64,000 nt of DNA, taken from contig NZ_JAKVME010000003.1 of NCBI RefSeq assembly GCF_022483985.1, forward strand, positions 9,442-73,441, written 5' to 3'. The notes under the pieces are model-generated. The model was not told where the DNA came from. It made no database searches and saw nothing but the letters and a program-made list of their open reading frames with translations. This DNA is from Acetobacter sp. Its GTDB lineage: Bacteria; Pseudomonadota; Alphaproteobacteria; Acetobacterales; Acetobacteraceae. The translations under genes were made by a program, and so were the position numbers. This document shows positions 29,537-51,879 of this stretch, piece after piece. The stretch's first letter is position 1; every line of letters starts with the position of its first letter.

Positions 29537-30436
29537 TCAGACGGGGAAGGAAAACGGGTTGAGGCCAGCACGGCTGAAGCCTTCCGCCTGCACCAGCGCG
29601 TCGAGCGTGAATCCTCCCAGATCATCGGCGACGACTTCAAGGTCAGGGTCATAATCGAGACGGATCACTTTCAGATAGGTTCCGCAATCTCCACATGCCT
29701 CGGCCTGTGTGGCGGACTTCAGATCGTCGAGCGTAAAATGTTCCAGCTTGCTGGAAGCCCCGCAACTGACGCAGAGACCGCGGACCCGATGCCAGCGTGT
29801 CTCGCACAGACTGCACTGCAGATAGCGCAGCCCCTCGCGGTCTCCGCCAAGGACGACGCTCCCTGACGGAGGGGCGCCACAACACGGACATGCCGCAACC
29901 TGACCGCCTTTTGCGGACTGGCTGAAAAACGCCACTGTCTGTGCCCAGCAGACAGACAGCGCAGCCCACAGCACAACGGACAGACCGGCATCGACCGTGG
30001 CGTAATCTCCCCGCAGAAGCTGCGCCGCCTGTCGGCTCAGGGCTAATACCGACTGCTGTGAGGCTTCCATTGCAGCCTGCGCGGAAAGAGGCAGAACCGG
30101 CAGAAGTTCCTGAACCAGTTCCGCGAAGACTGTCCGCCAGACAGCTATCTCTTCAAGCTTCTGCTCCAGGTCCGGCTGGGCGTAGCCGTGCTGAATGAGA
30201 GCATGGATGGCCGTCGCATCCGCTTCACTGAGCAGCATCCTGCCTACGAGGCTCTGCTGTATCCCGACCAGACGGGACAGAAAGCGAAAATACTCTCCCT
30301 GTTCGCCAGCGAGCGCATTCAGCCTTCTGATGCGGCGGGCGTAAAGCCGGTCCGGCTGAGGAAAGATCAGTTCCTCAATCGCCGGAACGCCCGGAGTCCG
30401 CTTGTCCAGCGGGACAACATCAGAGTCCCTGTGCAT
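29537..30436 (-). CDS. fdhE: formate dehydrogenase accessory protein FdhE
   Basis: Four CxxC pairs (CPCCG, CSLCETRWH, CVSCG, CGDCGTYLK), as in FdhE. Confidence 0.9.
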   Translation of the reverse strand: MHRDSDVVPLDKRTPGVPAIEELIFPQPDRLYARRIRRLNALAGEQGEYFRFLSRLVGIQQSLVGRMLLSEADATAIHALIQHGYAQPDLEQKLEEIAVWRTVFAELVQELLPVLPLSAQAAMEASQQSVLALSRQAAQLLRGDYATVDAGLSVVLWAALSVCWAQTVAFFSQSAKGGQVAACPCCGAPPSGSVVLGGDREGLRYLQCSLCETRWHRVRGLCVSCGASSKLEHFTLDDLKSATQAEACGDCGTYLKVIRLDYDPDLEVVADDLGGFTLDALVQAEGFSRAGLNPFSFPV

Positions 30437-31092
30437 CAGGAATGCCGTTTCACGGAGGTTTCCTCCTCAGAGAGGACTTCCTCAGCATACCAGCGATCAT
30501 GATGCTGGCGCGCCCATGCGCGGGAAACATAGCCTGTGATCATGCCGCCGATCGAGCCACGGACCCAGATGCCCATATAGATATGCCCGAGCACCAGAAG
30601 AATGAGCGCAAGAGCCGCCGCCGAGTGCGCCAGAAGCGCCAGCCGGATGACCGGGATCGGGAAATACATCGCGAAATAGGCCCGCCAGATCACCAGTCCT
30701 GTAACGAACAGTGCGCTGATCAGGGTCATGATGCCCCAGAAGAGAATTTTCTGCCCGGCATTATATTTACCGATCAGGAGCTTCTCACCGTGACGGTTCA
30801 TCAGCACGTCGAAAACATGACGGAACCAGACCCCGTCCGTCCGTACGGGCATATTATGGTGCACGAAGCGCACGAACATGCACATCAGCAACAGGAAAAC
30901 CACCACACCGAGGAAAGGATGCAGGATACGCGCCAGTTGTGGCGGTCCGAGAACGCTGCCCAGCCAGTGCAGGCTGGGGAAGAACCACGAGAGTCCGGAC
31001 ATGGCGACAAGAAAGAAACACGCCACCATCGTCCAGTGAAGCAGGCGATCGCCAAACTTCGTGCGCAGAATGCGACCGGAATTATCCATCAC
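30436..31092 (-). CDS. fdoI: formate dehydrogenase cytochrome b556 (gamma) subunit
   Basis: 218 aa and 4 TM with conserved His residues. Follows the beta subunit with an overlapping stop/start. Confidence 0.85.
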
Positions 31093-32042
31093 GCGTCCCT
31101 CCGATCTTCTGAAGAGTCGTTACCGGCTGTTTCCAGTTCTTTTTCAGGTTCCGGAATATGTTCCGGCCCGGCTTCCGGCGTTTCATCCGTCGTGTTGGGA
31201 CCGACGCCCATGTAATGCGCAAAGGCGCCCGCCACTGTGGCGATGAAACCAAGTGCGCCCACAGGCTTGAGCCATTCCTTCCAGCCACGGACAACAGGGC
31301 TGATCGTGGGATTGGCAGGCAGGCGGTGATAGAGTTCAGGCTTATCCGCGTGTGTCAGCACATACATGACGTGCGTGCCCCCAACGCCAGCAGGATCGTA
31401 CAGGCCGGCCCCATCATGCCCGCGGCCTTTGAGTTCCTCCACCCGCTCGGCCGCGAGATCCTTCATTTCAGCCTTGGAGCCGAAAGCGATCGCGCCCGTC
31501 GGACAGGTTTTCACACAGGCCGGTTCCTGTCCCACAGCCACCCTGTCCGCGCAGAGCGTGCATTTATAGGCGCGGTTGTCGGTCTTGCTGATGCGGGGAA
31601 TATCGAAAGGACAACCCGCCACGCAGTACCCGCAGCCGATGCACTGCTCGGACTGGAAATCGACGATACCGTTTGCGAACTGTAGAATCGCACCGGGGCT
31701 GGGACATGCTTTCAGGCAGCCCGGATCCTCGCAGTGCATACAGCCCTCCTTGCGGAGAAGCCATTCCAGCTTATCGCTCTCATCCTCGACTTCATCGAAG
31801 CGGATGACCGTCCATGTTTCCGCCGTAAGATCGGCGGGGTTGTCATAAACGCCCACATTGTGCCCGACCTCGTCACGCAGATCGTTCCATTCGGAACACG
31901 CAACCTGACAGCCCTTGCACCCCGTGCAGAGGGAAACGTCGATCAGTTTGGCGACTTCCGTTTCATGGCTGCGGACCTGAGGCGTCGGAGTAAAACCATT
32001 GGTGGCGGAGCGGCGGATGATGTCCTGTGACTGCATGCCCAT
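31089..32042 (-). CDS. fdoH: formate dehydrogenase iron-sulfur (beta) subunit
   Basis: Multiple 4Fe-4S Cys clusters ([38 protein letters not shown]) and a C-terminal TM anchor. Confidence 0.9.
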
Positions 32043-32053
32043 CGTGATGCTCC

Positions 32054-35000
32054 TCAGGCTTTCTCAACATTGACAAGGAAGGCCTTGAATTCCGGCGTCT
32101 GGGAATTTGCATCGCCTATGGCGGGCGTGAGGGTGTTGGCAAGGAAGCCCTTGCGTGTCGCTCCCCTGAAACCCCAGTGGCAGGGAATACCGACCTGATC
32201 GAGATCGTTTCCCATCACATTGAGGCGCTTGAGCCGCTTGGTGACCACAGCCTTTGCCTCAATGTAACCGCGCTTTGAAGACACGCGCACCTTGTCGCCC
32301 GCGACGACTCCCAGTTTGCCGGCAAGCCGTTCGCCAATCTCCACGAACTGCTCCGGCTGCATGATGGCATTCAGATGCGAATGCTTCGTCCAGTGACGGA
32401 AAAGTTCCGTGATGGAGTAGGTCGTGGCCACATAGGGGAACTGATCCGGACTGCCCATACGGGACATCTCATCGGCAAACATGCGGGCAACAGGATTGTG
32501 CCGGACGACCTTGCCAAGCGCAGGCCCCGTGACAGGACTTTCGGTGGGTTCGTAATGTTCCGGGAACGGGCCATCAGCCATGGACCGGCCGGCAAACAGG
32601 CGCGACACGCCTTCACTCTGCATAATGAACGGCCCGACGCCACTGCCGGGAGGGGAGGTGAGCGGATAGTCAGGCACATCCGCTCCGCCCCAGCGCTTTC
32701 CGTCCCATGAGATGATCTGGCGGCGCGGGTCCCACGGACGCCCCTGCGGATCCAGCGATGCGCGGTTATACAGCAGCCGTCGGTTGGCGGGCCATGCCCA
32801 TGCCCAGCCCGGCGTGTTGCCAAGACCGGTATCGGTGTTATCGCGGCGCGCCATCTGGTTTCCGGCCTGCGTCCAGGAACCGGCAAAGATCCAGCAGTAA
32901 CTGCTGGTCGTCCCATCATCTTTCATGACAGAAAAGTCGGGCAGCAGCTCACCCTTACGCACCACGACCTGACCTGAGGCGTCCTGAATGTCCGCAAGGG
33001 CGTATCCATTGGATTCCTGCGCCACTTCTTCCGGGGTCGGCTCTTCCGGATCGTGGTAATTCCACTGCATGTTCAGCACGGGTTCGGGGCAGGTTCCGCC
33101 TTCCCTCGTGTACAAATCCCGCATCTTTGTATAGATGGTGCCGAGAATACGCCCGTCGCTCCAGGCATCGCCCGGCGGTTTTGCACCCGAAAAATGCCAC
33201 TGAAGCCAGCGGGCCGAGTTGACGATTGAACCGTTTTCTTCAGCAAAGCAGGTGGATGGCAACCGGAAGACCTCGGTCTGGATCTCTTCCGGCTTTGCGT
33301 CGTTGTAGACGCCCTCATTGCGCCAGAAGTTGGAGGTTTCCGTATCCAGCGGGTCGATCGTGACGAGGAATTTCAGTTTCGAGAGCGCTTCGCGCATCCG
33401 GTTCTTGTCGGGCATCGCGGCAAGCGGATTGAAGCCCTGCGCGATGTAGCCGTTAACCTTTCCCTGATGCATCAGTTCGAAGTAGGCCAGCATGTCATAG
33501 CTGCGATCCCATTTCGGCAGCCAGTCATAGCCCCAGCTGTTGTCCGCGGATGCATGATCGCCCCAGAGGGTTTTCATCAGGCTGACGAAGAATTTGGGTG
33601 TGTTGTGCCAGTAATTGACCTCGTTCGGCTCATCGCTCTTCGGTGTCGTGGCCTCCAGATACGTCTCGATTGTCTGCTGACTGTCTTTCGGAAGGTTCAT
33701 ATAGCCCGGCAGACGTGTGGAGAGCAGGCCGAGATCCGTGTAGCCCTGAATGTTCGAATGCCCGCGCAGAGCATTCAGACCGCCGCCAGGCATCCCGACA
33801 TTGCCGAGAAGCATCTGAATCATGGCTGCCGTGCGGATAACCTGCGCGCCGTTTGTATGATGCGTCCAGCCAAGGGCGAACAACATGGTTGCCGTGCGAT
33901 CAGGGACACTGGTGGAGGCGAGTTCCTCACAGACATGCAGGAAATCCTTTTCGGACGTGCCTGTGATCTGCGAGACGAGTTCGGGCGTGTAGCGACTGAC
34001 GTGCTGCCGGAGAAGATTGAGGACACAGCGCGGATTCTGGAGCGTGGGATCTTTTCTGGCAAACCCCTGTTCGTCGCGCTCATAGTCCCACGACCCCATG
34101 TCGTAGCTGCGCTTCGCCGCGTCATAACCGGTGAAGATGCCGTCATGGAACTCGAAGTCTTCCCGAACGATCAGCGCCGCATTCGTATAGGCGATCACAT
34201 ACTCATGCTGAATCTTGTCCTGACTCAGGAGATATCGGATCACGCCCAGCAGGAAGGCCGCATCGGACCCTGCCCGGATCGGCGCATAGAAATCCGCAAC
34301 GGCGGCGCTGCGATTGAAGCGGGGATCAACCACCATCACCCTGGCGGCGTTACGGATTTTGGCTTCCATAACCCATTTGAAACCAACCGGATGGGCTTCA
34401 GCCGGGTTGCCGCCCATGATCAGAACGACATTGGCGTTCTTGATATCCACCCAGTTGTTGGTCATCGCGCCACGCCCGAAACTCGGAGCAAGAGCTGAGA
34501 CCGTCGGAGCGTGACAGAGACGGGCCTGACAATCCAGACCCAGCATTCCAAGGGAGCGGGCAAACTTGAAATCCAGCAGACCGGTCTCATTGCTGGCTGC
34601 GGAAGACGCCAGCATACCAGAACTGAGCCAGCGATTGACCAGTTCGCCTTTCTCGTTGCGCTGGATAAAGTTTTTGTCGCGGTCATCCTTCAGCAGGCGG
34701 GCAATCCTGCTGGTCGCCTCATCCCAGCTTATCCGCTTCCATTCATTGCTGCCCGGCGCGCGATAGGTCGGATATTGCAGGCGGCTCTCGCTGTGGATGA
34801 AATCAACCAGCCCCGCACCCTTCGGACACAGCGAACCACGGCTCACAGGATGGTCCGGATCGCCTTCAATATGGAAGATGCTGGGTTTCGCGTTCTTTGC
34901 GCCGTCACCAAGCGAATACATCAGGATTCCGCAACCGACCGAGCAGTAGGTGCAGTTGTTGCGTGTCTCTTTCGCCCGCAGGAGCTTGTACTGTCGCGTC

Positions 35001-35107
35001 TCCTGCGCATGGGCCAGAGGCGGCGTAAACCCAAGAGCGACAGCGCTGGCACCGGCGATGCAAGCGCCGGTGTTTTTCAAAAAGTCTCTACGCCCAAGGG
35101 TCGTCAT
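32054..35107 (-). CDS. fdoG: formate dehydrogenase-N/O catalytic (alpha) subunit, Cys-type, Tat-exported
   Basis: Tat signal [17 protein letters not shown] from ATG 35107. CTYCSVGCG FeS motif. [10 protein letters not shown] has Cys (tgt, 34514-34516) where the E. coli enzymes carry Sec. Confidence 0.9.
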
Positions 35108-35465
35108 AAGGGATATCCTGCTACCCTGATCAATAAGTCGGATAGCATATATCTGAAATTTATTGAGATTGTCTTTGATACGGATCATAAAAAAGTGATT
35201 TTTATTCAGAACAACAGGAAAACACGCTTCTTTTATCTATATTTCTCTGTATATAGTTGTGCTGCCGGACCGGAACCGGCCAACATAACCACAACTTCTC
35301 AAACCGGCTATTTTCCTCATATTCAGAGAACCGACGGACACATCAACACGTTGGCCGGAAATTTCAGTGTCGTTCAGAGGTCAGAGGTTGCAACGGTGAC
35401 GACGTTCGCAGCCGAAACAGTCATATCCATCACCGTTATCGTGCTGTCCGTGCGAGGTCGAATGC

Positions 35466-35600
35466 CTCAATAAGCATCTGTTCCGTAACATCGCCCACGC
35501 ACCGACGGTCATCGCGGACTGGCGGGCCGACTACAACGCCGTCAGGCCCCACACCAGTCTCAATGGCATGACCTCAGATGCTTTCGCTCAACACGCCGAC
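35466..35600 (+). mobile_element. IS3-family transposase C-terminal scrap
   Basis: Translates to LNKHLFRNIAHAPTVIADWRADYNAVRPHTSLNGMTSDAFA, which matches the end of the rve integrase-core region (W-R-x-D-Y-N-x-x-R-P-H). Confidence 0.65.
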
Positions 35601-35635
35601 AAGGCATTCGCCAGCTACCGCTGCCCGGATCACAG

Positions 35636-36352
35636 TCAGACTGACAGAAAGCGCGTCAACTGATCGATATCCGCGTCTGCTCGTGTCGTTTCATGCACGA
35701 TACGACCGCCTTCAATCACGATGATCCGATCCGCGACATCCAGTGCGAAACTAAGCACCTGTTCCGACACCATGATCCCAAGCCCACTTTCATCGCGAAT
35801 TCTGCGGAGTGTTCTGGCCATATCCCGGATGATCGAAGGCTGAATTCCCTCGGTTGGTTCGTCGAGCAGCAACAGTTTCGGCTCTGTCGCCAAGGCTCGG
35901 GCAATGGCAAGCTGCTGCTGCTGGCCACCGGACAGGTTGCCTCCTCTCCGTGTCCCCATTTCCTTCAATACCGGAAACAACGCATACAGCCTTTCGGGAA
36001 TGCTCGATTTTCCACGCACGAATAATCCGGTTTCGATATTTTCTTTCACGGTCATCGCCGGAAAAATCATCCGTCCCTGTGGCACATAAGCCAAACCGGC
36101 CTTTACGCGCTCACAAGCCGCCAGCGAAGCCAGTTCCGTCCCTTCCAAGCGGATTGTTCCTGACCGGATGCCCATATTGCCAATCAGGGACTTCATGAGC
36201 GTGCTTTTACCCATCCCGTTTCGTCCCATCAGGACCAGTATCTCGCCCTGAGCGATCCGCAGATTGATGCCATGCAGGACTTCGCTGGCTCCATAAGCGA
36301 CGTGAAGGTCGCCTACATCCAGCAACGTGCCCATAACCGGAGCCGGGGCCAT
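35636..36352 (-). CDS. urtE: urea/short-chain-amide ABC transporter ATP-binding protein (UrtE-like)
   Basis: Walker A GRNGMGKST, signature LSGGQQQQLAIARAL and Walker B LLLDEP. Start at 36352, or 36334. Confidence 0.8.
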   Translation of the reverse strand: MAPAPVMGTLLDVGDLHVAYGASEVLHGINLRIAQGEILVLMGRNGMGKSTLMKSLIGNMGIRSGTIRLEGTELASLAACERVKAGLAYVPQGRMIFPAMTVKENIETGLFVRGKSSIPERLYALFPVLKEMGTRRGGNLSGGQQQQLAIARALATEPKLLLLDEPTEGIQPSIIRDMARTLRRIRDESGLGIMVSEQVLSFALDVADRIIVIEGGRIVHETTRADADIDQLTRFLSV

Positions 36353-36359
36353 GCCGCTT

Positions 36360-37106
36360 TCAATGCCCAAGATACACCTCCACAACTTTAGGATCATTTT
36401 TCACATGCTCCATGGAGCCGTCTGATATGATGCGTCCCTGGTGCAGAACCGTGACCTGATGGGCAATTTTCTCGACAAAACCCATATCGTGCTCAATGAC
36501 CAGAACCGAACGTGACTGGATGATACGTTGCAGCAGTTCCGCTGTGCGTACACGTTCGCTGATTGTCATGCCTGCAACCGGTTCATCGAGCATCAACAGC
36601 GCCGGATCCTGTATCAGCAGCATACCGATTTCCAGCCACTGTTTCTGGCCATGACTCAACCCGCTGGCCTGCTGATCCAGTTTGTCATCCAGATAGATCA
36701 TCGCAGCAATGTCGTTGATCCGTTCGAGCATGGCCCGGTCCTGCCGGAAAAACAGAGCTTCGAAGACTCCTCGACCGCGGGGATAGGATATCTCCAGATT
36801 TTCAAACACCGTCAGATCCTCATAGACGGAAGGCGTCTGAAACTTCCGCCCTACGCCTGAGCGCACGATGTCGTATTCCTTCATCCGTGTCAGTTCGCGT
36901 CCAGCGAAACGGATGGACCCGGATGTGGCTGCCGTGCGACCACAGATCAGATCCAGAACCGTCGTCTTGCCCGCGCCGTTCGGCCCGATGATGACGCGGA
37001 TCTCGCCGCGATTGATACGGAATGACAAATCATCAACAGCCTTGAAGCCATCGAAAGAAACGCTCAGTCCTTCAACTTCCAGAAGGGGTTCGTTCGTTGT
37101 TGTCAT
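36360..37106 (-). CDS. urtD: urea/short-chain-amide ABC transporter ATP-binding protein (UrtD-like)
   Basis: GPNGAGKTT, LSHGQKQWLEIGMLL and LMLDEP, with the UrtD-type N-terminus LLEVEGLSVSFDGFKA. Confidence 0.8.
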   Translation of the reverse strand: MTTTNEPLLEVEGLSVSFDGFKAVDDLSFRINRGEIRVIIGPNGAGKTTVLDLICGRTAATSGSIRFAGRELTRMKEYDIVRSGVGRKFQTPSVYEDLTVFENLEISYPRGRGVFEALFFRQDRAMLERINDIAAMIYLDDKLDQQASGLSHGQKQWLEIGMLLIQDPALLMLDEPVAGMTISERVRTAELLQRIIQSRSVLVIEHDMGFVEKIAHQVTVLHQGRIISDGSMEHVKNDPKVVEVYLGH

Positions 37107-37118
37107 GCTGGTCTCTCC

Positions 37119-38282
37119 CTACGCCTTTTCATCGGTGGTGCTGGAGATCCTGCTGCCCAGCACGCTCAGAAAGCGGTCCACATATCGGTCGAGGTGAGTC
37201 CGGTAGAGGCTGGCAAGACCACCGGGAAGAAACAGCACGATTCCGATGAACAGTCCCCCCATCGCGAAGGTCCAGAGTTCGGGGAGCGATTCTGAAAAAC
37301 TCGTTCGTGCCCAGTTGACGATCAATGTGCCGTACACCGCTCCGAACAGGGAGTTCCGTCCGCCGACCGCACAGTAAATGACCATTTCGATGGACGGCAC
37401 GATCCCGACGAAGGTCGGCGACATGAATCCGACTTCCAGCGTGAACAGGGCGCCACCGATACCGGCCATGGCCGCGCAGAACGCAAAGATGAAAATCTTG
37501 AAGTTCGCCACATTGTATCCGGAAAACCGGACCCGGTCTTCCTGATCCCGTATCGCGCGCAGGATACGGCCCAGCTTACTGCGCCGCACGAAACGGACCA
37601 TCAGCATGCAGACCAGCAGCAGAACCGCGCCGACGTAATAAAGGACCAGTTTCGCGTGGTCACTCTGGATATCCCAACCATCCAGAGTTCGCAGATCGGT
37701 AATGCCGTTGACGCCACCGGTATAGCCCTGCTGTCCGATGATAAGGATGGTCAGGATCGACGCGATAGCCTGTGTGATGATTGCAAAATAAGTGCCACCC
37801 ACACGGCGGCGAAACATGGCGATGCCAATGACCATGGCCAGAAGCGTCGGAACTGCCAGCACGGCCAGAAATGTGAAGGACAGGCTGTGGAATGGTTTCC
37901 AGAACCACGGCAAGGCTGTGATCTGGTTCCAGTCCATGAAATCGGGAATCCCCGGAGTGGACTGACTCTTGGTCGCTTCTGGTGTCGAGGCCTGGAGTTT
38001 CAGGAACATCGCCATGCAATACCCGCCAAGGCCAAAGAATATTCCCTGCCCCAGACTGAGGATTCCCGTGTCGCCCCAGCAGGCGACCAGCCCGATGGCC
38101 ACGAAGGCATAGGTCAGATATTTTCCGACCAGCGTCAGGCGAAACGCATCCAGCCCCGCGGGCAGCACGACCAGAAGAACCACGGCGAGGATACTGAAGA
38201 ACAGGATATCCTTGCGGTTCTGAAGGGAAAGCATGTCTTTCTCCCGAAATATGGAAATTTTGGCCTGAATGCCCTTCGGCAT
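37119..38282 (-). CDS. urtC: urea/short-chain-amide ABC transporter permease (UrtC-like)
   Basis: LivM/UrtC-like multi-TM protein. ATG at 38282 (TTG at 38288 and ATG at 38234 are also possible). Confidence 0.75.
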   Translation of the reverse strand: MPKGIQAKISIFREKDMLSLQNRKDILFFSILAVVLLVVLPAGLDAFRLTLVGKYLTYAFVAIGLVACWGDTGILSLGQGIFFGLGGYCMAMFLKLQASTPEATKSQSTPGIPDFMDWNQITALPWFWKPFHSLSFTFLAVLAVPTLLAMVIGIAMFRRRVGGTYFAIITQAIASILTILIIGQQGYTGGVNGITDLRTLDGWDIQSDHAKLVLYYVGAVLLLVCMLMVRFVRRSKLGRILRAIRDQEDRVRFSGYNVANFKIFIFAFCAAMAGIGGALFTLEVGFMSPTFVGIVPSIEMVIYCAVGGRNSLFGAVYGTLIVNWARTSFSESLPELWTFAMGGLFIGIVLFLPGGLASLYRTHLDRYVDRFLSVLGSRISSTTDEKA

Positions 38283-38284
38283 CT

Positions 38285-39235
38285 TCAACGCCTGACCTTG
38301 ATGGCAAACAGACCCTGCGGACGGATCATCAGTATTCCCACGACCGTCAGCAGAACGACCACCTGCGCCATTGAGCCGTTGAAGAAGAATTCAAGGATTG
38401 AACGCACCTGCGAAATGCTGAAAGCCGAGGCTATCGTGCCACCCAGACTCTCCGTCCCACCGAAAGCGACTACCAGAAACGTATCCACGATATACTGCTG
38501 TCCCGCCGTCGGGCTGGTGGAGCCGATCATGGTAAAAGCTGCACCGGCGACGCCAGCCACACCGCAACCAAGCCCGAATGTTGTGCGATCGACCCGCTCG
38601 GTATCGATGCCAACCGCACCGGCCATGGTCCGGTTCTGCATCACCGCCCGCACCTGCTTGCCCCAGCCGGAACGGTAGAGAAGCGCGTAGACACCGCCGG
38701 TAATCAGCAACGTCAGAGTGATGACGATCATCCCGTTGATCGGAATCTGGATGGTCTCGGTCAGGTCCCATGACCCCATCATCCACGAGGGCAGCGTCAC
38801 GCCGACCTCGCGTGCGCCGAACGTCGAACGCAGAACCTGTTGCAGGATCATGCTGACGCCCCAGGTTGCAAGCAGCGTGTCGAGCGGCCTCTTGTAGAGA
38901 AAACGTATCAGTGACCATTCCAGCAACATCCCGATTCCACCAGCAACGATGAAGGCCAGAATCACGGCGAAGAAGAAGTAAAGGCCGAACAGACCGGGCA
39001 ACCATCGCTCGAATATCTGCGAGCAGACATAGGTCGTATAAGCGCCCAGAATCATGAATTCGCCATGCGCCATGTTGATGACGCCCATCTGGCCGAACAC
39101 GATCGCCAGTCCCAATGCCATCAGGAGAAAAACCGAAAACAGAATCAGTCCGGCGAAACTCTGCATGACGAAGATCGACGCCAGATCGTTGATCGAATAT
39201 CCCGCGAACATCGAGATCCTCCTGATGAAGGACAC
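38285..39235 (-). CDS. urtB: urea/short-chain-amide ABC transporter permease (UrtB-like)
   Basis: LivH/UrtB-like. 316 aa with the INMAHGEFMILGAY motif. Confidence 0.8.
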   Translation of the reverse strand: MSFIRRISMFAGYSINDLASIFVMQSFAGLILFSVFLLMALGLAIVFGQMGVINMAHGEFMILGAYTTYVCSQIFERWLPGLFGLYFFFAVILAFIVAGGIGMLLEWSLIRFLYKRPLDTLLATWGVSMILQQVLRSTFGAREVGVTLPSWMMGSWDLTETIQIPINGMIVITLTLLITGGVYALLYRSGWGKQVRAVMQNRTMAGAVGIDTERVDRTTFGLGCGVAGVAGAAFTMIGSTSPTAGQQYIVDTFLVVAFGGTESLGGTIASAFSISQVRSILEFFFNGSMAQVVVLLTVVGILMIRPQGLFAIKVRR

Positions 39236-39307
39236 ATGGCCGCGACACAGGCAGACACTGCCTGAACGCGACCTATGACATGAAAAATATTTCTGTAATA
39301 AGGGTTT

Positions 39308-40570
39308 TTACTGATACCCGACCGGGAAAGGATTGGGCTCGATCAGATCGGGCGTCTGATAGATGACATTGAACTGTCCGTCCGTCCGGGCCTGCCCAAC
39401 CAATGTGCGGCTCCACAAATGATGGTTTTTGGCAATGCGGACATACCCTTCAGGCGCATCCTTGAATTCGATCCCCGGTGATGCGTCGATAACCTTGTCG
39501 ATATCGAAAGAGCCAGCTTTTTCGACGCTCATTTTCCAAAGCCACGGCCCCAGATAGGCGGCCTGAGTCACGTCGCCGATTACGCTGTTCTCTCCCCACA
39601 TTTTCTTGAAGGCCGCGACGAATTTCTGGTTTTCCGGAGTCGCGATACTCTGGAAATATTTCATGCAGGCGTAAGCACCGGCGATATTTTCACCACCGAT
39701 ACCAAGAATTTCGTCCTCCGTGACCGAAATGGTCATCAGATTATGTTTCGACAGATCCAGTCCAGCGGCTTTCAGCTGCTTGTAGAAGGCGACATTCGAA
39801 CCGCCAACAATGATCGCGTAGATCACGTCGGGCTTCATGAGCTTGATCTTGTTGATGACTGAATTGAACTGCGCATCGCCAAGAGGGAAATACTCCTCTC
39901 CCACAACACGTGATCCCTTCAGATGATTTTCAATATGCTTGCGTGCGATCTTGTTCGCGGTGCGCGGCCAGATGTAGTCCGACCCAAGCAGATAATACGT
40001 CTTGGCGTTCTTTTCCTTGGAAATCCAGTCCAGACCTGCCAGAATCTGCTGCGTCGCTTCCTGACCGGTGTAGATCACGTTGCGGGACTGCTCCAGTCCT
40101 TCGTAAAAAGTCGGATAGTAAAGCAGCCCGTTGTAATGCTCGAAAACCGGCAGTACCGCTTTGCGCGAGGCAGAAGTCCAGCAGCCGAATACTGAGGCGC
40201 ATTTATCGTTTTCCAGCAATTTGCGCGCCTTCTCGGCGAAGGTCGGCCAGTCGCTTGCGCCATCTTCCTGAATAAATTTGATCTTGCGTCCCAGAACGCC
40301 GCCCGCCTCGTTGATCTGCGCGATCGCAAGCTTCTCGGCTTCAACCGACCCTGTTTCACTCAACGCCATCGTACCGGTGATGGAATGCAGAATACCGACA
40401 GTCACACTGTCGTCGGTGACGGCCAGACCGCTCTTGTTGATCAGCGCCGTGGCCGGGGTATCCGCTCTGGCCAGACGCGGCATCAGCGCACCGAGGGGGA
40501 GCGCCGACATGCCCATCAGAACCCTGCGGCGACTGGATTGCTTGTTCAACGGATTCTTTCTGTCAGGCAT
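39308..40570 (-). CDS. urtA: urea/short-chain-amide ABC transporter substrate-binding protein (UrtA/FmdD-like)
   Basis: ATG at 40570 (MPDRKNPLNKQSSRRRVLMGMSALPLGA..ARA signal). Type-I periplasmic binding fold sequence (VGILHSITGTMA, YYPTFYEG). Confidence 0.8.
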   Translation of the reverse strand: MPDRKNPLNKQSSRRRVLMGMSALPLGALMPRLARADTPATALINKSGLAVTDDSVTVGILHSITGTMALSETGSVEAEKLAIAQINEAGGVLGRKIKFIQEDGASDWPTFAEKARKLLENDKCASVFGCWTSASRKAVLPVFEHYNGLLYYPTFYEGLEQSRNVIYTGQEATQQILAGLDWISKEKNAKTYYLLGSDYIWPRTANKIARKHIENHLKGSRVVGEEYFPLGDAQFNSVINKIKLMKPDVIYAIIVGGSNVAFYKQLKAAGLDLSKHNLMTISVTEDEILGIGGENIAGAYACMKYFQSIATPENQKFVAAFKKMWGENSVIGDVTQAAYLGPWLWKMSVEKAGSFDIDKVIDASPGIEFKDAPEGYVRIAKNHHLWSRTLVGQARTDGQFNVIYQTPDLIEPNPFPVGYQ

Positions 40571-40646
40571 TATCTGTTCACCTTCGCTGCAAGTGTTCGT
40601 GCTCTTGGGACGACCAGACAAGAATTCAGGATCGGGTAGCGCATTT

Positions 40647-40665
40647 TCCATACGTCGATTGACGT
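40647..40665. promoter_or_regulatory. candidate operator, 7-2-7 palindrome TACGTCG-AT-TGACGTA, in the urtA / kinase divergent region
   Basis: ccatacgtcgattgacgta. The same 19-mer with one mismatch recurs at 46132-46150, upstream of amiF. Confidence 0.6.
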
Positions 40666-40786
40666 ACCAGGACGGAAGCAAAAGACGCTTCTTTGTTCTG
40701 GTTTCGATATGTAGAGTGATGCCAACCGGATGCCTGTCCTGTTCGGCCGTACGGAAAGGCGCATGTTTCCACATCAACGGATCATT

Positions 40787-43700
40787 ATGTCGCGTCGCAG
40801 CTACAACCGCTGGGTCGCGGACGAGACGATGGAAGACTACGCCTTGCGTTTCACGCCGGGTTCGGCCCGGCGCTGGTCATTACCGGGCGTCGCCAACACT
40901 GCTTTTGGAGGCGTGTCATTTCTGGCGCTGGAAATGATCGGCGGTCTGGTGTTTCTGCAATACGGCTTCACCAACGCAACGTTGGCGCTGCTGATCGGCG
41001 TGGTGCTGATTTTCCTGCTCAGTCTCCCCATCAGCTATCATTCGTCGCGCTGCGGTATTGATATCGATCTGCTCACGCGCGGAGCGGGCTTCGGCTATAT
41101 CGGATCGACACTGACCTCGCTGGTCTACGCATCGTTCACCTTCATGTTCTTCGCCATCGAAGGCGCGATCCTGTCCGATATCCTGAAACTGAGTCTCGGA
41201 ATTCCGCTCTGGCTGGGATACATCCTGTCCACACTGGTCGTCATACCCATCGTTGCACGCGGCTTCACGCTCATCAGCCGGTTTCAGGCATGGACAGTCA
41301 TACCGTGGCTGGCGCTTCAGCTTTTGCCCTTCGTGGTTATCGCGTGGCGACAGCCTGATGCAGCGGCTGGGTGGTCGCATTATGCGGGACAGAATCCGTC
41401 CATGCCCCGGCTGATGGGAATAGGGGCTGCTTTTTCCATCATCTTTTCTGTTGTCACCCAGATCGGTGAGCAATCGGATTTTCTGCGCTTTCTCCCCGTC
41501 CCGCAGAATGGACGACAGAAATGGGCGTGGTGGACGGTCATTCTGACCTGTGGCGCGGGGTGGATCTTCGCGGGCGGACTGAAGATTCTGGCGGGTATGT
41601 TTCTGGCCTGGCTGACACTGCGTCACGGAGAGCCCTCCGCCATCGCACAGCAACCGACGACAATGTATCTGATGGCGTTCAGGCAGGTAACAGCCCACCC
41701 CGGCTGGGCGCTCGCTCTGACCACTCTTTTCATTGCGTTATCCCAGATCAAGATCAACATCACCAACGCCTATGCCGGGTCGATAGCGTGGTCCAATTTC
41801 TTCTCGCGTGTCACCCACAGCCACCCCGGTCGCGTCGTGTGGCTTGCGTTCAATGTCGGACTCGCCCTGCTACTGATGGAAATGGACATCTACAGCACCA
41901 TCATCAGTCTGCTGTTTCTGCATTCGACCGTTGCGGCCTCATGGATCGGTGCATTGACGTCCGATCTGGTCGTCAACAAGCCGCTGGGGCTCAGTCCGCC
42001 GGGGATCGAATTCCGTCGGGCCTATCTGTACGACATCAATCCCGTCGGTATCGGCGCCATGACCGGGGGCATCGCGGCGGCGGCGGCTCTCTACCTTGGG
42101 GTGTTCGGTCCCGCCTTCACTGTCTTCGCCCCGATGGCCGGACTGGTTTGCGCTTTCTGTCTGGCGCCGCTTATCGGTTGGGCAACGCGGGGCCGGTACT
42201 ATCTGGCGCGACGTCGCTTCGTCCCGCCGGTGAACGCTAACCGTTATACCTGTGTCATCTGTCAGAACAGTTTTGAAGGCGAGGACATTGCCCGCTGTCC
42301 CGTCTATGCGGGCTTCATATGCTCGCTGTGCTGTAGTCTGGATTCACGCTGCCGTGACGCCTGCAAGCCGGATGGCGCACGTCTGAGCGGCCAGATCGCA
42401 TCTCTGGCGCGCGCACTGCTGCCGAAGGCGATCATGACACCCAACTTCGGGATCATCTGCCGCTATCTGGCCATTCTGTTCGCGCTGATGGTCTGTGCCG
42501 GCGGCGTTCTCTTCGGACTGTATGCTGCGATCGTGCCATTCGCCGCTGTTCAGTCATCCGGACTATACGCGGTTTTCTGGAAGACGTTCTTTCTGCTGCT
42601 GCTGCCACAGGCAGTGCTGGCATGGTTCGTGGTCCTGAACCAGCGAAGCTATCGTACGGCTGAAGACGAAAACCGTTACCAGACCAGACTGCTGATGAAA
42701 GAAATACGGGCTCACCGTCGCACTGACCAGCAACTGAAAAAAGCCAAGGAGCGTGCAGAATCGGCCAACCTGTCAAAAAGCCGTTTTATGGTCGGCGTAA
42801 ATCATGAAATTCGCACTCCACTCAATTCGATAATGGGATATGCCTATCTGCTGGAAAACCGGATGCTGACACCGGCACGACGTGACGAGGGGTTGAAGAT
42901 CATCCAGCGCAGCGCCGAGCATCTGAGCGGCCTGATCGAGGGGCTGTTCGACATCTCCAAGATCGAAGCAGGCCGGATGGATGTGCTGCACGAAAAAATC
43001 AACCTGCGCGACTTCCTGCGGCATCTGACGGATATGCTGCGTTTTCAGGCCAATCAGAAAAACCTTGATTTTATTGAGGATATTCCAGACACGATCCCGG
43101 ATTACGTCATCACCGACCAGCGTCGGCTGAGGCAGATTCTGATCAACCTGCTGTCAAACGCGATAAAATTCACCAATCAGGGATTCGTTTCATTTTCAGT
43201 CCGCTGGGGGACTGAAATTGCGACATTCGAAATCCGGGATAGCGGAATCGGTATCCCGGAGGAGGACATGGAGCGTATTCACGAACCATTCCAGCGGAGT
43301 TCTCACCCGAATTCCCATCGTATTCCCGGAACCGGTCTGGGGCTGACCATAACGCGCCTGTTAGTCCAGATTCTGGGAGGAGAGTTGACGATTTCCAGCA
43401 AGGTCGGACAGGGGACCTCCTGTCGCGTGCGCTTGATGCTGGCCAGCGCTCAGTCTGATGCAGGAACGGTGCCGCCGATCAGCCTGCTGACGGAAACGGG
43501 ATCAATGGCAATGGGAAAACGTCGGCCCAGCGTCTTCGTCGTCGATGACGATCCGATTCATAGAGGCATGATCAACGATGCTCTGGAGCCGCTGGGCTTC
43601 GTGGTCTATTCTGCCTCCAATGGACAGGAATGTCTGGATATCGCGGCTCATGCTTCGATCGACCTGTTTCTGCTGGACGTCAACATGCCTGGCATGAGCG

Positions 43701-44116
43701 GGTGGCAACTGGCGCGCCGGTTACGTCAGGGGAGCAATCGTGCCTCCGTTATCCTGATCATTTCCGCCGACGAGCAGGTAAGGACCCAGACAAATCGCGA
43801 CGGATTGTGCGATGGTATCCTGTCCAAGCCCATTTCGATCTCCGAACTACTGACTCTGATTGACCGAACGCTGGTTCCCGCTGCTTCCACTTCCGAACCT
43901 GCTGTCAAGAACACGACAAACCAGTTGCTGACACCCCCAGACCTGTCGGAACTCCGGCGACTGGCCCGGCTTGGCCATATCGCTGGTCTATTGCGCTTTC
44001 TGGATACGGTTGCAGACACCGCACCGGACGATGCACGAATTATCCGTGACATGGCGAAACATTTTCAGATCGGGGAACTGCGCTCTTTCCTCGACAACTA
44101 CAAGGAGCGGGAATGA
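40787..44116 (+). CDS. hybrid sensor histidine kinase/response regulator with N-terminal permease-like (cytosine/purine-permease-type) 12-TM sensor domain and an 8-Cys cluster
   Basis: ATG at 40787. About 480 aa of transporter-like TM helices, then the Cys cluster CVICQ..CP..CSLCCS..CRDAC (42251-42364), 2 TM, HisKA (VNHEIRTPLNSI), HATPase (GTGLGLTITR) and REC (VFVVDDD..LLDVNMPGMSG). Confidence 0.8.
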   Translation: MSRRSYNRWVADETMEDYALRFTPGSARRWSLPGVANTAFGGVSFLALEMIGGLVFLQYGFTNATLALLIGVVLIFLLSLPISYHSSRCGIDIDLLTRGAGFGYIGSTLTSLVYASFTFMFFAIEGAILSDILKLSLGIPLWLGYILSTLVVIPIVARGFTLISRFQAWTVIPWLALQLLPFVVIAWRQPDAAAGWSHYAGQNPSMPRLMGIGAAFSIIFSVVTQIGEQSDFLRFLPVPQNGRQKWAWWTVILTCGAGWIFAGGLKILAGMFLAWLTLRHGEPSAIAQQPTTMYLMAFRQVTAHPGWALALTTLFIALSQIKINITNAYAGSIAWSNFFSRVTHSHPGRVVWLAFNVGLALLLMEMDIYSTIISLLFLHSTVAASWIGALTSDLVVNKPLGLSPPGIEFRRAYLYDINPVGIGAMTGGIAAAAALYLGVFGPAFTVFAPMAGLVCAFCLAPLIGWATRGRYYLARRRFVPPVNANRYTCVICQNSFEGEDIARCPVYAGFICSLCCSLDSRCRDACKPDGARLSGQIASLARALLPKAIMTPNFGIICRYLAILFALMVCAGGVLFGLYAAIVPFAAVQSSGLYAVFWKTFFLLLLPQAVLAWFVVLNQRSYRTAEDENRYQTRLLMKEIRAHRRTDQQLKKAKERAESANLSKSRFMVGVNHEIRTPLNSIMGYAYLLENRMLTPARRDEGLKIIQRSAEHLSGLIEGLFDISKIEAGRMDVLHEKINLRDFLRHLTDMLRFQANQKNLDFIEDIPDTIPDYVITDQRRLRQILINLLSNAIKFTNQGFVSFSVRWGTEIATFEIRDSGIGIPEEDMERIHEPFQRSSHPNSHRIPGTGLGLTITRLLVQILGGELTISSKVGQGTSCRVRLMLASAQSDAGTVPPISLLTETGSMAMGKRRPSVFVVDDDPIHRGMINDALEPLGFVVYSASNGQECLDIAAHASIDLFLLDVNMPGMSGWQLARRLRQGSNRASVILIISADEQVRTQTNRDGLCDGILSKPISISELLTLIDRTLVPAASTSEPAVKNTTNQLLTPPDLSELRRLARLGHIAGLLRFLDTVADTAPDDARIIRDMAKHFQIGELRSFLDNYKERE

Positions 44117-45009
44117 CCAGCATTGTACTTGTCGTGGATGACGAACCTGTCAATCTGTCTCTCGCCACGGACATTCTGGAAGCTGGAGGCTTTACGGTCC
44201 TTGTGGCCCAGTCGGCGGACGACGGTCTGGCCATTCTGGCCGATGTTCCGGTCGATCTGGTATTGCTGGATGCCGTGATGCCGGGGAAGGATGGATTCCA
44301 GATGTGCCGCATCATGAAAACGATCCCGGATTACTGTGATATTCCAGTCATTTTCATGACCGGCCTGTCCGGACAGGATGACATTGTTCTGGCATTTGAA
44401 GCGGGCAGCGTCGATTATATCATCAAGCCCATCCAGCCAGCCGAACTGCTGGCCCGCACGCGCACACATCTGGATAATGCTAGAAAAACCAAGAATATTT
44501 TTCGGGCCATAAATTTTTCGGGCCGCCATTTCCTGGCCACTGACCGGGAAGGCGTCGTGCAGTGGTTCTCTCCGCAGGTTCCCGCCATCATTGGAAGTGG
44601 CGCAGCACATGACGCGACGCCGAAGCTGTCTGCGGACACACTGCGCTGGCTGCTGACCTGTATCAATACATCATCATCCGTCGATACCAGCTACAGGCAG
44701 CAGGACACGGAGTATGGTATCGAATTCAATTTTATGGGGCAGTCTGAATCCGATGAATTTCTGGTCCGTCTGACTGTTGTCAGGGATGGACAGGACATTA
44801 CGTGCCTACAGGTCAAACTGGGACTGACGGTAAGGGAGGCTGAGGTTCTGTTCTGGGTGGCAAAAGGCAAAACCAATCGGGATATTGCTGAAATCCTGTC
44901 GATCAGCCATCGAACCGTCAATAAACATCTTGAACAGGTCTACATAAAAATCGGTGTGGAAAACAGGGCGGCCGCAACCGCCCGTGTTCTCCAGGCACTT
45001 CATGGATAG
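44113..45009 (+). CDS. response regulator, REC + unknown middle domain + LuxR-type HTH
   Basis: ATGA overlap with the kinase stop. REC motifs VLVVDDE..LLDAVMPGKDG. C-terminal LTVREAEVLFWVAKGKTNRDIAEILSISHRTVNKH. Confidence 0.85.
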   Translation: MTSIVLVVDDEPVNLSLATDILEAGGFTVLVAQSADDGLAILADVPVDLVLLDAVMPGKDGFQMCRIMKTIPDYCDIPVIFMTGLSGQDDIVLAFEAGSVDYIIKPIQPAELLARTRTHLDNARKTKNIFRAINFSGRHFLATDREGVVQWFSPQVPAIIGSGAAHDATPKLSADTLRWLLTCINTSSSVDTSYRQQDTEYGIEFNFMGQSESDEFLVRLTVVRDGQDITCLQVKLGLTVREAEVLFWVAKGKTNRDIAEILSISHRTVNKHLEQVYIKIGVENRAAATARVLQALHG

Positions 45010-45012
45010 AAA

Positions 45013-46020
45013 CTATTTGGGCATCGGTCCAAGTTTCACGCCGTCTGGATAATATTTCCAGCCATCGCGGATACGGACTTTGTCATCCCAGGGAAGTTTA
45101 TATTCTCCAGCGGCAAGGTCGCGTACCCAGGTCAGATAGTTAGCCTTCTCACCACCCGGTTTGCCGACATAGGCGCGGCACCCCAGATTGAAGATATTGT
45201 TTTCCAGCGCCCAGTTTTCACGCGCCTTGTCCACCAGACGTGGGAACAGCTCGGCGGTAACGATTTCCCAGGGGTTGCGATGTCCCTGCTGGATCACGTT
45301 GCCGTCGTAATTGCAGACTGTACCTTCACCAAAATAATAAAACACATTGTCATATCCAGCAAGGTTGACGGATATGGTGTACATCAGATTTTGCCAGGCG
45401 TTGGTCCTGTTGGTCCATATCCACTGGTCGTTAACCTGCGTGGAATAGCCGGAAATGCGGATATAGACATTCGCTCCCTTATAGGCCGCTTCACGCGCCA
45501 GTTCCGGAAACATGCCGTCATGGCAGATGCATACCGCCAGACGTGATCCCTTGGGACCATCGCAGACCGGCATTCCAAAGTTTCCCGGCGACCAGGGCTC
45601 GATCGGCACCCAGGGCTGCAATTTGCGGTAATGCAGTGCGATCTCACCATCAGCGTTAATAATGATAGCTGTATTGTAGGGAGGCAGCGACGGATCTTCG
45701 TTTCGCTCCATGAGCGAGAAAACCCCCCACACATCGTTGCGCTTGCATGCTTCCTTGAAACGGGTGATTTCCGGACTTTCGACCGTCAGCAGCATTTCGT
45801 CGTAGGTCCAGATCGACGTATTCAGCCCTTGCGTCGAATATTCCGGGAACACAATGACGTCCAGATCCGGGTATCCGGCCTTCGTTGAATCGACCGCACG
45901 GCAGATCTGATCAACCTGTGTCTGGATATCTTCAGGACCTTTGATGACCGGGACCGGATATTGAATCAGCGCGACCAGAAGAGCCTCTTCCCACGCGCTC
46001 ACACTCCCTGTGCTTCCCAT
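45013..46020 (-). CDS. amiF: formamidase (AmiF-type, nitrilase superfamily)
   Basis: From ATG 46020 (aaaggag RBS): [59 protein letters not shown]. This matches Helicobacter AmiF closely as I recall it, including the Glu/Lys/Cys triad context. Confidence 0.85.
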
Positions 46021-46131
46021 GAACTGCTCCTTTGCAAAAACGACAGCCCTACTCGGCCAGTCAGACAGCGGATCGAAGACTTCACGCTCCCGACCCAGGA
46101 GATAATCGTCACGCGTCATGTGGATTCAGGC

Positions 46132-46150
46132 CCATACGTCGTTTGACGTA
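46132..46150. promoter_or_regulatory. candidate operator upstream of amiF (second copy of the palindrome)
   Basis: ccatacgtcgtttgacgta. Its centre lies about 120 bp upstream of the amiF ATG, and 18 of 19 positions match 40647-40665. Confidence 0.6.
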
Positions 46151-46700
46151 AAATGGTGGTTCTAAAGGCAATTCAGGGATGAGCGTTTTTCGGATGAGAC
46201 TGGCGCCCAGTGCGATGAGGATGATGGCCTGTGAGATATCGAGGCGGCGATCGTAGTCGTGCATGAAACGTGGCCATCTTGTCATCCAGCCGACTGATTC
46301 GCTTCATGGCTCGACCGCTTCCGTTCCAGCATCAGTCCCACGTCTTGAATGGTCTGGAGCAGGAACCGTCGGACCAATTCCCTGAACCAGCCATAGACCG
46401 TCGCCAAGACCCGAAATGAATCGGAAGCATCCGCCAGCCGCAGCCGGATCGAATCAAATCGTGCACCGCGTTGATCGCGAAAAACTGGACATCAAAGTCT
46501 GAACACATGAAGCGGACTCTTGTCCTCGCTGATGTGAGGTTTGCGACCAGATCGGTGCATGTCTTGGCAATGATCGAACGGAGTATTGATGCTGGCGTGC
46601 CGTTCCTCTGGATAGCATCGGTCGTCTGGACTTTGGTAAGATCAATTGGTTATTATTCCGGTACCGGAATGGAAGGTTTTCGACTCCTCCCATTTTTGCA
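46151..46700 (-). mobile_element. IS5-family element remnant (frameshifted, internally deleted transposase)
   Basis: Minus-strand frames give ..AINAVHDLIRSGCGWRMLP.., ..TVYGWFRELVRRFLLQTIQDVGLMLERKRSSHEANQSAG.. and ..TRWPRFMHDYDRRLDISQAIILIALGASLIRK... These are the N- and C-terminal blocks of IS5-type transposases with the DDE core missing. Confidence 0.65.
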
Positions 46701-51400: not shown

Positions 51401-51879
51401 CATAAGTCGCCCCCTCCCTCTTTCCGGCCTGTCACCTACTACGAAGTAGTCGCGCGCTGATCCTTACGGATTGGAAGAAAAAACAAGACCGCATTAATCA
51501 CCGTTCCACTTGAAGCGCGCTCTGAATAATCGCGACCAACCTTCGCGTAATACGGTCTCGTTTTCCTTGCGGAGTCACCATGATCACCCCCCTCTTTCGT
51601 CCACAATTCGCACCGCAGATTCAATGTGTGATTGATCGCCTTTATTCCGAGACACTCTCGCAAGATCCAGCGATACGCCAATTGGCGCAAGCCAAAGGAC
51701 TGACACATGACGGCCAGCGTGGTTTCTACGAGGCCATGAAAGATGAGATCGTTCATCCGGTTGTTGCGGGGTGCGATGTCGTCGAATTCATCAGTCGGGT
51801 CGAGTGTGAACTCGTTCTCCATCGGCTCTTTCTTTTCGACAGTGCCTTCGCCCAGTTCAGGCTGACGGCGTCGGGCGGA

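Follow-up and report, generated by a model that had tools for sequence, protein, structure and literature searches.

A conserved palindrome predicted to join a urea/amide transporter operon and a formamidase gene in one two-component regulon of Acetobacter

In Pseudomonas aeruginosa, the amiEBCRS amidase operon is controlled by AmiC and AmiR through ligand-regulated transcription antitermination acting on RNA. The Escherichia coli response regulators NarL and NarP recognise 7-2-7 sites whose heptamers follow the consensus TACYYMT. CrbS/CrbR (MxtR/ErdR) and RpuS/RpuR, systems that each combine an SLC5/STAC hybrid kinase with a LuxR-type activator, depend for activation on an imperfect inverted repeat conserved from species to species (PMC5715377, PMC9100948). 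In Methylophilus methylotrophus, the fmdCABDEF cluster links a formamidase with an amide/urea ATP-binding cassette (ABC) transporter and has formamide and urea as its inducers (PMC10781810), and clusters of urtABCDE, a LuxR two-component system and fmdA have been mentioned descriptively in genome papers (PMC13296017, PMC13209695). Here we analyse a 64-kb stretch of Acetobacter sp. (contig NZ_JAKVME010000003.1, hereafter the window, to which all positions refer) in which two near-identical 19-bp palindromes stand upstream of urtA, belonging to a urea-type transporter operon, and of the formamidase gene amiF, with the genes of a hybrid sensor kinase and a LuxR-type response regulator between them. 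Comparison with other genomes gives good support to the prediction that the palindromes and the genes behind them are the operators and regulon of a widespread, hitherto uncharacterised amide-responsive two-component pair.

Two palindromes upstream of urtA and amiF

Site 1, CCATACGTCGATTGACGTA, is the predicted operator of the urtA promoter and site 2, CCATACGTCGTTTGACGTA, that of the amiF promoter (Table 1). As the original prediction had it, they differ at a single base, A versus T, which falls in the spacer; the coordinates given there were exact for site 2 and one base off for site 1 (40647-40665 in place of 40648-40666). Both sites had been described as 7-2-7 inverted repeats, and the NarL-type 16-bp TAC...GTA frame is indeed present, whereas the symmetry of that frame is imperfect, its seventh positions (G and T) being non-complementary. 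The exact symmetry of both sites is 6-4-6, TACGTC-N4-GACGTA (TACGTC-GATT-GACGTA in site 1), or 7-4-7 when the flanking A/T is counted. The centre of site 1 lies 88 bp upstream of the urtA ATG (40570) and that of site 2 122 bp upstream of the amiF ATG (46020), in keeping with the earlier estimates of about 87 and 120 bp; the distance to the kinase gene, put at about 130 bp, is instead about 104 bp when measured from the centre of site 1 to the conserved start codon.

Statistics confined to the window are moderate. No further copy with two or fewer mismatches occurs in the 64 kb, as had been claimed, and a position matrix scores the two sites at 22.6 and 22.3 bits, with the next best match at 13.1 bits, while a search allowing three mismatches is uninformative (5 matches versus 3.5 expected). 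Perfect 6-4-6 palindromes number 36, versus 18 +/- 4 in shuffles, and TACGTC is the sole arm of this kind that recurs; some arm recurred in this way in 11 of the 200 shuffles. There are 4 diagonals with pairs of 19-mers that have at most one mismatch, versus a mean of 0.4 in shuffles. Window evidence alone thus makes a modest case against chance; on the sequence comparison with other genomes described below, the sites are far beyond it. When 240 bp around each site were aligned, the likeness ended at the borders of the 19-mer and, because the flanks are without similarity, the pair is not a segmental duplication.

Two weaker look-alikes were considered as third copies and rejected. One, at 35131 (9.7 bits), is 24-45 bp from the fdoG ATG, too close as well as too weak. 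The other, CGATACGCCAATTGGCGCAAGC at 51671-51692 (13.1 bits), has no functional link and was kept out of the regulon; it contains a perfect inner palindrome, CGCCAATTGGCG, and lies amid small open reading frames without Pfam matches, adjoining a DNA methylase gene. Further near-identical direct repeats of the window, 19-mers with at most one mismatch, are 17641-17681 versus 22749-22789, a pair spanning about 45 bp, 437 versus 60311, and 12516 versus 23068. On the kinase side of site 1, 8 bp away, a hairpin-like GGAAGC-N7-GCTTCT followed by a T-run occupies 40674-40701; A. oryzifermentans has a different inverted repeat at that place.

Conservation of the motif and covariation with the regulator

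An alignment of kinase homologues led to 80 loci in the genomes of alpha-, beta- and gammaproteobacteria, in nearly all of which urtEDCBA is divergent from the kinase and regulator genes. The exact sequence TACGTC-N4-GACGTA occurs in about 25 of these 80 loci, nearly always in the intergenic region between urtA and the kinase gene, compared with a chance expectation of about 0.1 in 1.6 Mb. With at most one mismatch, ATACG-N8-CGTAT, which mostly takes the form ATACGTC-N4-GACGTAT, precedes urtA at about 60 of the 80 loci, with five matches elsewhere; counted over 84 loci with the kinase-regulator pair, the motif stands before urtA in about 75. Its spacer is constant in length and free in sequence. 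Clade-specific variants of the site include ATACGCAAGATCGCGTAT in Bradyrhizobium, ATACGCTGTTTTGCGTAT in Methylobacterium and CTACGTCATTTGACGCAT in Alcanivorax, Marinobacter and Cellvibrio; the Bradyrhizobium-type operator reads ATACGCGATCTTGCGTAT.

Conservation in close relatives, suggested as a check together with the original prediction, was borne out. Acetobacter aceti, A. oryzifermentans and Komagataeibacter share the architecture of the window and keep both sites, at urtA and at amiF, in intergenic DNA otherwise too diverged to align. Across the four Acetobacteraceae, whose kinases are 63-91% identical (91% between the window and A. aceti NBRC 14818), no intergenic block other than sites 1 and 2 is invariant. 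A scan of 1.74 Mb, comprising the window and 83 loci, with a symmetrised 22-bp matrix yielded 91 matches of at least 14 bits, 90 of them located upstream of urtA, fmdA, amiF, amiE or the kinase gene. The matches at urtA are partly circular in that the training set included urtA sites, and the non-circular part of the result is the near absence of matches elsewhere, the matches close to amidase genes and those in loci added later.

Second sites in front of amidase genes extend the pattern beyond the transporter. The amiF sites of the four Acetobacteraceae lie 123-132 bp upstream of the gene. In most taxa, fmdA, of the Acetamidase/Formamidase family, directly follows urtE and is presumably served by the urtA promoter. 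Alcanivorax and Marinobacter carry an insertion of amiE and an amiB-like AAA gene behind urtE, and their fmdA is preceded, at 108-139 bp, by a motif copy of its own. The aliphatic amidase gene of Azospirillum oryzae, which follows the regulator gene on the opposite strand, placed as amiF is here, also has its own site, and in Thioclava a formamidase gene after the regulator gene has one 104 bp upstream. One further locus (L027) and two metagenome contigs (L105 and L120) carry the site directly before amiE. Taken over the other taxa, the distance from the site to the fmdA, amiE or formamidase gene is 104-139 bp. That AmiF, FmdA and AmiE, which are unrelated or distantly related, are encoded behind the same element argues for a single regulon for short-chain amides. 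The small palindrome-defined regulon proposed for the window is therefore strongly backed by phylogenetic footprinting and by these second sites before non-homologous amidases, and in relatives it would usually also take in fmdA and/or amiE.

These comparisons bear on whether the two copies might be a chance or duplication relic, or mark a hairpin in the 5' leader RNA (stem 6 bp, loop 4 nt), which we consider exceedingly improbable. Recurrence of an arm in about 5% of window shuffles would speak for chance, and any DNA palindrome can be drawn as a hairpin, but conservation extends beyond pairing to the sequence itself (ATACG...CGTAT) in three proteobacterial classes. A spacer fixed in length and free in sequence is as expected of a dimer site, the dissimilar flanks speak against a segmental duplication, and the inner arm positions vary in step with a residue of a protein, described next.

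The regulator encoded between the two sites, which the original prediction had singled out as the candidate binding protein, belongs to the NarL/FixJ (LuxR-type) class, with a receiver domain and a C-terminal GerE helix-turn-helix that aligns to the RhlR, VraR, GerE and DosR chains. Its recognition helix, SHRTVNKHLEQ, follows the pattern S-x-R-T-V-X-K-H, in which X, here Asn270 (codon 44920-44922), changes together with positions 6-7 in the half-site ATACG-NN. When X is Asn, 107 of 130 half-sites read ATACGTC, versus none of 50 when X is Asp (these read CA, CG or TG), 1 of 12 when it is Thr and none of 4 when it is Gln or Ser. Counted by locus, at least one GTC half-site is present in 49 of 50 Asn-type loci versus 1 of 32 others (Fisher p = 3e-20, without correction for phylogeny). 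At least six separate departures from Asn appear in a neighbour-joining tree of the regulators, in a Bradyrhizobium/Enhydrobacter clade, Aureimonas, a Burkholderiales metagenome-assembled genome, Methylobacterium, Acidisoma and Terrihabitans. The Asn/GTC rule also predicted loci examined later: Azospirillum combines Asp with non-GTC half-sites, and six metagenome loci combine Asn with GTC.

In an ungapped MAFFT alignment, X falls on the residue after 'TV' in other LuxR-type helices and corresponds to Lys188 of NarL; BLASTP of the regulator helix-turn-helix against NarL returned no alignment. Lys188 contacts bases in the NarL-DNA structure 1JE8. Such co-evolution of regulator and operator fits direct readout by this regulator and is hard to square with a bystander role. 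We consider it quite likely, on these patterns of sequence, that the regulator binds both sites and controls urt and amiF. A middle region of about 115 residues between its two domains (residues ~120-235, 44470-44815) has no Pfam match and by eye looks like a small PAS-like domain; the protein is about 90 residues longer than typical NarL/CrbR-type regulators.

A natural control is suggested by plasmid pTM2 of Tistrella mobilis (L125), where a urtABCDE-fmdA-zinc-ribbon cluster has a divergent LysR gene instead of the kinase-regulator pair. The best matrix score there, 9.8 bits at 9476-9511, belongs to the degenerate look-alike GTACGTGGGATTACGCAG, so that the strong site appears to be missing where the two-component system has been replaced. 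Since this look-alike occupies the same intergenic region, it could also be read as the mark of another factor, whether a global nitrogen regulator or one encoded elsewhere, that binds the palindrome while the two-component system is a bystander. A search for the exact 19-mer (W at the variable base) made without regard to genes in a metagenome collection likewise includes some contigs in which it stands upstream of unrelated genes, although 14 of the 40 contigs recovered adjoin urtA, the kinase-regulator pair, amiE or fmdA. A factor of this kind is nevertheless very unlikely, given that the recognition-helix residue shifts with the half-site in at least six lineages, with new cases predicted, and that the motif is tightly tied to loci with the kinase-regulator pair. 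To our knowledge, the palindrome is also unlike the sites of NtrC or NtcA.

The locus, its sensor kinase and a proposed mechanism

NCBIfam and Pfam scores uphold the gene calls of the original prediction for the Urt genes, amiF, the hybrid kinase and a regulator with REC and GerE domains (Table 1). All five UrtABCDE subunits exceed the NCBIfam Urt equivalog cut-offs; urtBCDE, encoding the permease and ATPase subunits, form a single operon with urtA, whose product carries a Tat-type (twin-arginine translocation) signal peptide and has urea or a short-chain amide as its predicted substrate class. The divergent kinase gene, with a start codon conserved among relatives, overlaps the regulator gene by 4 bp, and amiF, preceded by the ribosome-binding site AAGGAG, is convergent with the latter. 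AmiF is classed as a formamidase, the model for aliphatic amidases giving 238 bits versus a cut-off of 427. Pfam and NCBIfam detected no amiC or amiR in the locus, and a megablast search of the locus against plasmids returned distant urt matches only and no close relative.

Table 1. Positions of the predicted operators, genes and neighbouring elements in the window
Feature	Position	Strand	Basis or remark
fdoGHI-fdhE	29537-35107	-	formate dehydrogenase operon; true ATG of fdoG at 35107
Left insertion-sequence remnant	35400-35635	+	IS3-type integrase core rve_3, E = 5e-13
urtE	35636-36397	-	NCBIfam Urt 320 bits (cut-off 286)
urtD	36360-37106	-	NCBIfam Urt 372 bits (cut-off 304)
urtC	37119-38288	-	NCBIfam Urt 438 bits (cut-off 296)
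urtB	38285-39235	-	NCBIfam Urt 400 bits (cut-off 250)
urtA	39308-40570	-	urtA-like periplasmic substrate-binding protein; TIGR03407 545 bits (cut-off 493); Peripla_BP_5
Site 1	40648-40666		predicted operator, urtA promoter
Site 1, 16-bp core	40651-40666		
Hybrid sensor histidine kinase gene	40763-44116	+	1117 residues; Pfam HisKA, HATPase and receiver
Response regulator gene	44113-45009	+	298 residues; Pfam Response_reg 85.6 bits (residues 5-116), GerE 62.3 bits (238-289)
amiF	45013-46020	-	formamidase, nitrilase superfamily, 335 residues; NF009803 605 bits (cut-off 406); CN_hydrolase
Candidate -10 hexamer GATTAT, amiF promoter	46102-46107	-	putative
Site 2	46132-46150		predicted operator, amiF promoter
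Site 2, core	46135-46150		
Right insertion-sequence remnant	46152-46530	-	internally deleted IS4/5-family transposase; DUF4096 fragment (E = 2e-6) and typical C-terminal tail

The kinase consists, in order, of an N-terminal 12-helix domain of the NCS1/LeuT fold, a motif of eight cysteines, two further transmembrane helices, HisKA with its histidine at nt 42803, HATPase and, last, a receiver domain; it is 100% identical to a protein of 'Acetobacter sp.'. Outside HisKA, HATPase and the receiver there was no Pfam match at E = 0.001, and residues 1-480 had none even at E = 10 and no sequence match in the PDB. Assignment of this region to the LeuT/NCS1 fold comes from an AlphaFold2 model built on a 119-sequence alignment (predicted local distance difference test, pLDDT, 86.7; predicted template modelling score, pTM, 0.88); an alignment of 12 sequences gave an unusable model with a pLDDT of 46, making the larger alignment necessary. 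The top Foldseek matches of the model were CodB (7qoa, E = 4e-9) and Mhp1 (2jln, E = 1e-8), with template modelling (TM) scores of 0.65-0.76. SLC5 members matched at lower TM scores (0.53-0.61), with weaker matches also for further LeuT-fold carriers, the urea transporter DUR3 among them. With NCS1 as the best fold and neither SSF nor STAC detected by Pfam, the kinase falls outside the SLC5/STAC sensor kinases.

The eight invariant cysteines (residues 497-534, nt 42251-42364), spaced C-x2-C-x11-C-x7-C-x2-CC-x5-C-x3-C and without a Pfam match, probably bind a metal or cluster. A histidine phosphotransfer (HPt) domain is not apparent, as no Hpt Pfam match was obtained and no histidine is invariant in the C-terminal ~80 residues of 12 homologues. 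As a tentative proposal, which we would not yet favour over a narrower one, the kinase might found a second class of transporter-derived sensor kinases, in which an NCS1 domain, coupled to a hybrid histidine kinase through the invariant and probably metal-binding eight-cysteine module, senses formamide, short-chain amides or urea, whether it binds them or responds to their flux. The residue-270 specificity switch of the regulator (Asn/Asp/Thr) would have co-evolved with the operator on six or more occasions, and the whole would constitute a natural set of portable, orthogonal regulator-operator pairs for amide biosensors.

Scans for the σ70 consensus revealed no complete promoter and no usable -35 element in the urtA or amiF region, and the missing full consensus fits dependence on an activator. 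In the amiF promoters of the window and of two relatives (L081 and L082), a block GAC-GAT-YAT is found 25-33 nt past the core, with the block of a third (L084) one nucleotide off. If the GATTAT within this block of the window is the -10 element, the centre of site 2 would lie near -47, abutting or overlapping the -35 region, as for an activator. Five loci with 1-5 kb between urtA and the kinase gene (L062, L074, L075, L078 and L080) show which gene the site accompanies: it is 43-162 bp from urtA, usually with no site left at the kinase gene. Because it follows urtA when the genes separate, the site is a urtA promoter element and not primarily one of the kinase gene.

The same data make it unlikely that the regulator acts through the palindromes as a repressor or on its own synthesis, with the signal relieving repression or with the divergent kinase-regulator operon as the main target. 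Such an arrangement would suit the position of site 1 between divergent genes, with about 104 bp to the kinase start, and the extra site that one of the five loci, L075, has 124 bp upstream of its kinase gene, but the site otherwise goes with urtA. It would sit less easily with a site that lies upstream of the candidate -10 element without overlap, its centre about 36 nt ahead of the hexamer, or with the lack of a usable -35 consensus in either promoter, typical of activator dependence. Moreover, CrbR and RpuR, the closest analogues to have been characterised, act as activators (PMC5715377, PMC9100948).

We propose that the NCS1-type membrane domain of the kinase would detect a short-chain amide or urea, formamide being the likeliest, by its presence or its flux, and that the kinase would govern phosphorylation of the regulator. 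The latter would then bind ATACGTC-N4-GACGTA as a dimer, with one helix-turn-helix per half-site, just upstream of the -35 region or overlapping it, and would activate urtABCDE for uptake and amiF for hydrolysis to formate and ammonia. Binding, activation rather than repression, the identity of the signal and the route of phosphotransfer are all steps that we infer. We hold it very likely that the palindromes are operators of the regulator encoded between them within an amide-responsive scheme of this kind; for activation, and for formamide or another amide as the signal, we lean towards the proposal with less assurance.

Several observations weigh against this proposal. The p value for the covariation is uncorrected for phylogeny, and the tree behind the separate departures is a rough neighbour-joining one; two loci break the rule, L074 (Thr, with one GTC half-site) and L071 (Asn, with no GTC half-site), and a few kinase-bearing loci (L058 and L066) lack a recognisable site. 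The activator geometry depends on a putative -10 hexamer, and the transporter is annotated as urea-specific (Urt), leaving urea as a possible signal. The literature searched contained no functional study of the kinase-regulator system or of the motif. In the metagenome search, the remaining 26 of the 40 contigs represent about 14 unrelated lineages. Seven soil contigs of one lineage (L086, L091, L093, L098, L114, L116 and L118) carry the 19-mer 47-140 bp upstream of the gene for a 382-residue secreted protein of no Pfam family, which heads a DUF1592/DUF1588/DUF1552 operon with no evident amide link. In two contigs (L088/L108) the 19-mer is 163 bp upstream of a TonB-dependent receptor gene, in three it lies inside phage-like coding sequence, and in the others it is scattered. 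By a rough estimate, a collection of about 10^12 bases, a size that we assumed, would contain tens of matches by chance; these off-target occurrences are then near the count expected, and the on-target fraction is enormously enriched. The matches before the genes for the 382-residue protein and the TonB-dependent receptor may be due to chance or may represent further targets in other organisms.

Genomic setting and comparison with known systems

The 10.5 kb from 35633 to 46151 are collinear with A. aceti NBRC 14818 at 88.6% identity, and this homology extends to 3 bp beyond the urtE stop codon at one end and to 1 bp past the distal edge of site 2 at the other. The block is bracketed by insertion-sequence remnants, and both flanks are unlike A. 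aceti NBRC 14818. With the homology stopping right beyond site 2, the rearrangement on this side has removed all DNA upstream of the operator and spared the operator. The left remnant directly follows the urtE stop codon; the right one starts 1-2 bp past site 2, and one of its frames runs on through the site (...FYVKRRMG...). The fdoGHI-fdhE operon lies past the left remnant, on the strand of urtE; its fdoG product is a molybdopterin subunit with the Tat signal RRDFLK, and no terminator-like site was found in the interval between urtE and fdoG. Formate is the product of formamidase. The juxtaposition may be a by-product of rearrangement, A. aceti having unrelated genes at this position.

The analysis yields a concrete cis-element, ATACGTC-N4-GACGTAT, and a predicted regulon made up of a urt-type transporter and the amidase of the host (amiF, fmdA or amiE). 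Hundreds of alpha-, beta- and gammaproteobacterial genomes carry the system, among them those of Bradyrhizobium, Methylobacterium, Azospirillum, Alcanivorax and Acetobacter, and their 'urea' transporters would be recast as part of a module for the utilisation of short-chain amides or formamide. Covariation of regulator and operator offers a ready test bed for DNA recognition in the LuxR family, and the promoters could possibly serve as formamide- or urea-inducible ones, which would be relevant to formamide-based bioprocesses (PMC10781810).

Several known systems share parts of this design. The regulator resembles NarL in combining REC with a GerE-type helix-turn-helix, and the site shares the 16-bp inverted layout with an outer TAC in each half-site. 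It is not a NarL orthologue (58 bits in the NarL model versus a cut-off of 250), and the half-site here is (A)TACGTC(R): its heptamers, TACGTCG and TACGTCA, violate the NarL 7-2-7 consensus at positions 4 (G) and 7 (G/A). The kinase, signal and regulon are different as well. As in the AmiC/AmiR system, amide-inducible expression of an aliphatic amidase would be involved, with homologues of amiE and amiB in the predicted regulon of the gammaproteobacterial relatives; in contrast to antitermination on RNA, control here would act through a DNA operator of a two-component regulator. The Methylophilus fmd cluster differs in its proposed regulator, the small zinc-ribbon protein FmdB, and its description includes neither a kinase-regulator pair nor an operator (PMC10781810). 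The window in turn has amiF in place of fmdA and lacks fmdB and fmdC.

The closest characterised analogues are CrbS/CrbR and RpuS/RpuR. Like them, the present system has a LeuT-fold, transporter-like sensor in a hybrid kinase, a cognate LuxR-type regulator, a small regulon for uptake and catabolism devoted to one small substrate, and in its target promoters an inverted repeat that is conserved and is missing where the system is missing. It differs from them in its NCS1-like sensor, in the eight-cysteine motif and two transmembrane helices that replace STAC-PAS, in the longer regulator with its extra middle region, in the motif itself and in the substrates, which are acetate and pyruvate there and would be amides or urea here. 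The kinase described here stands outside that family and appears to work in a similar way.

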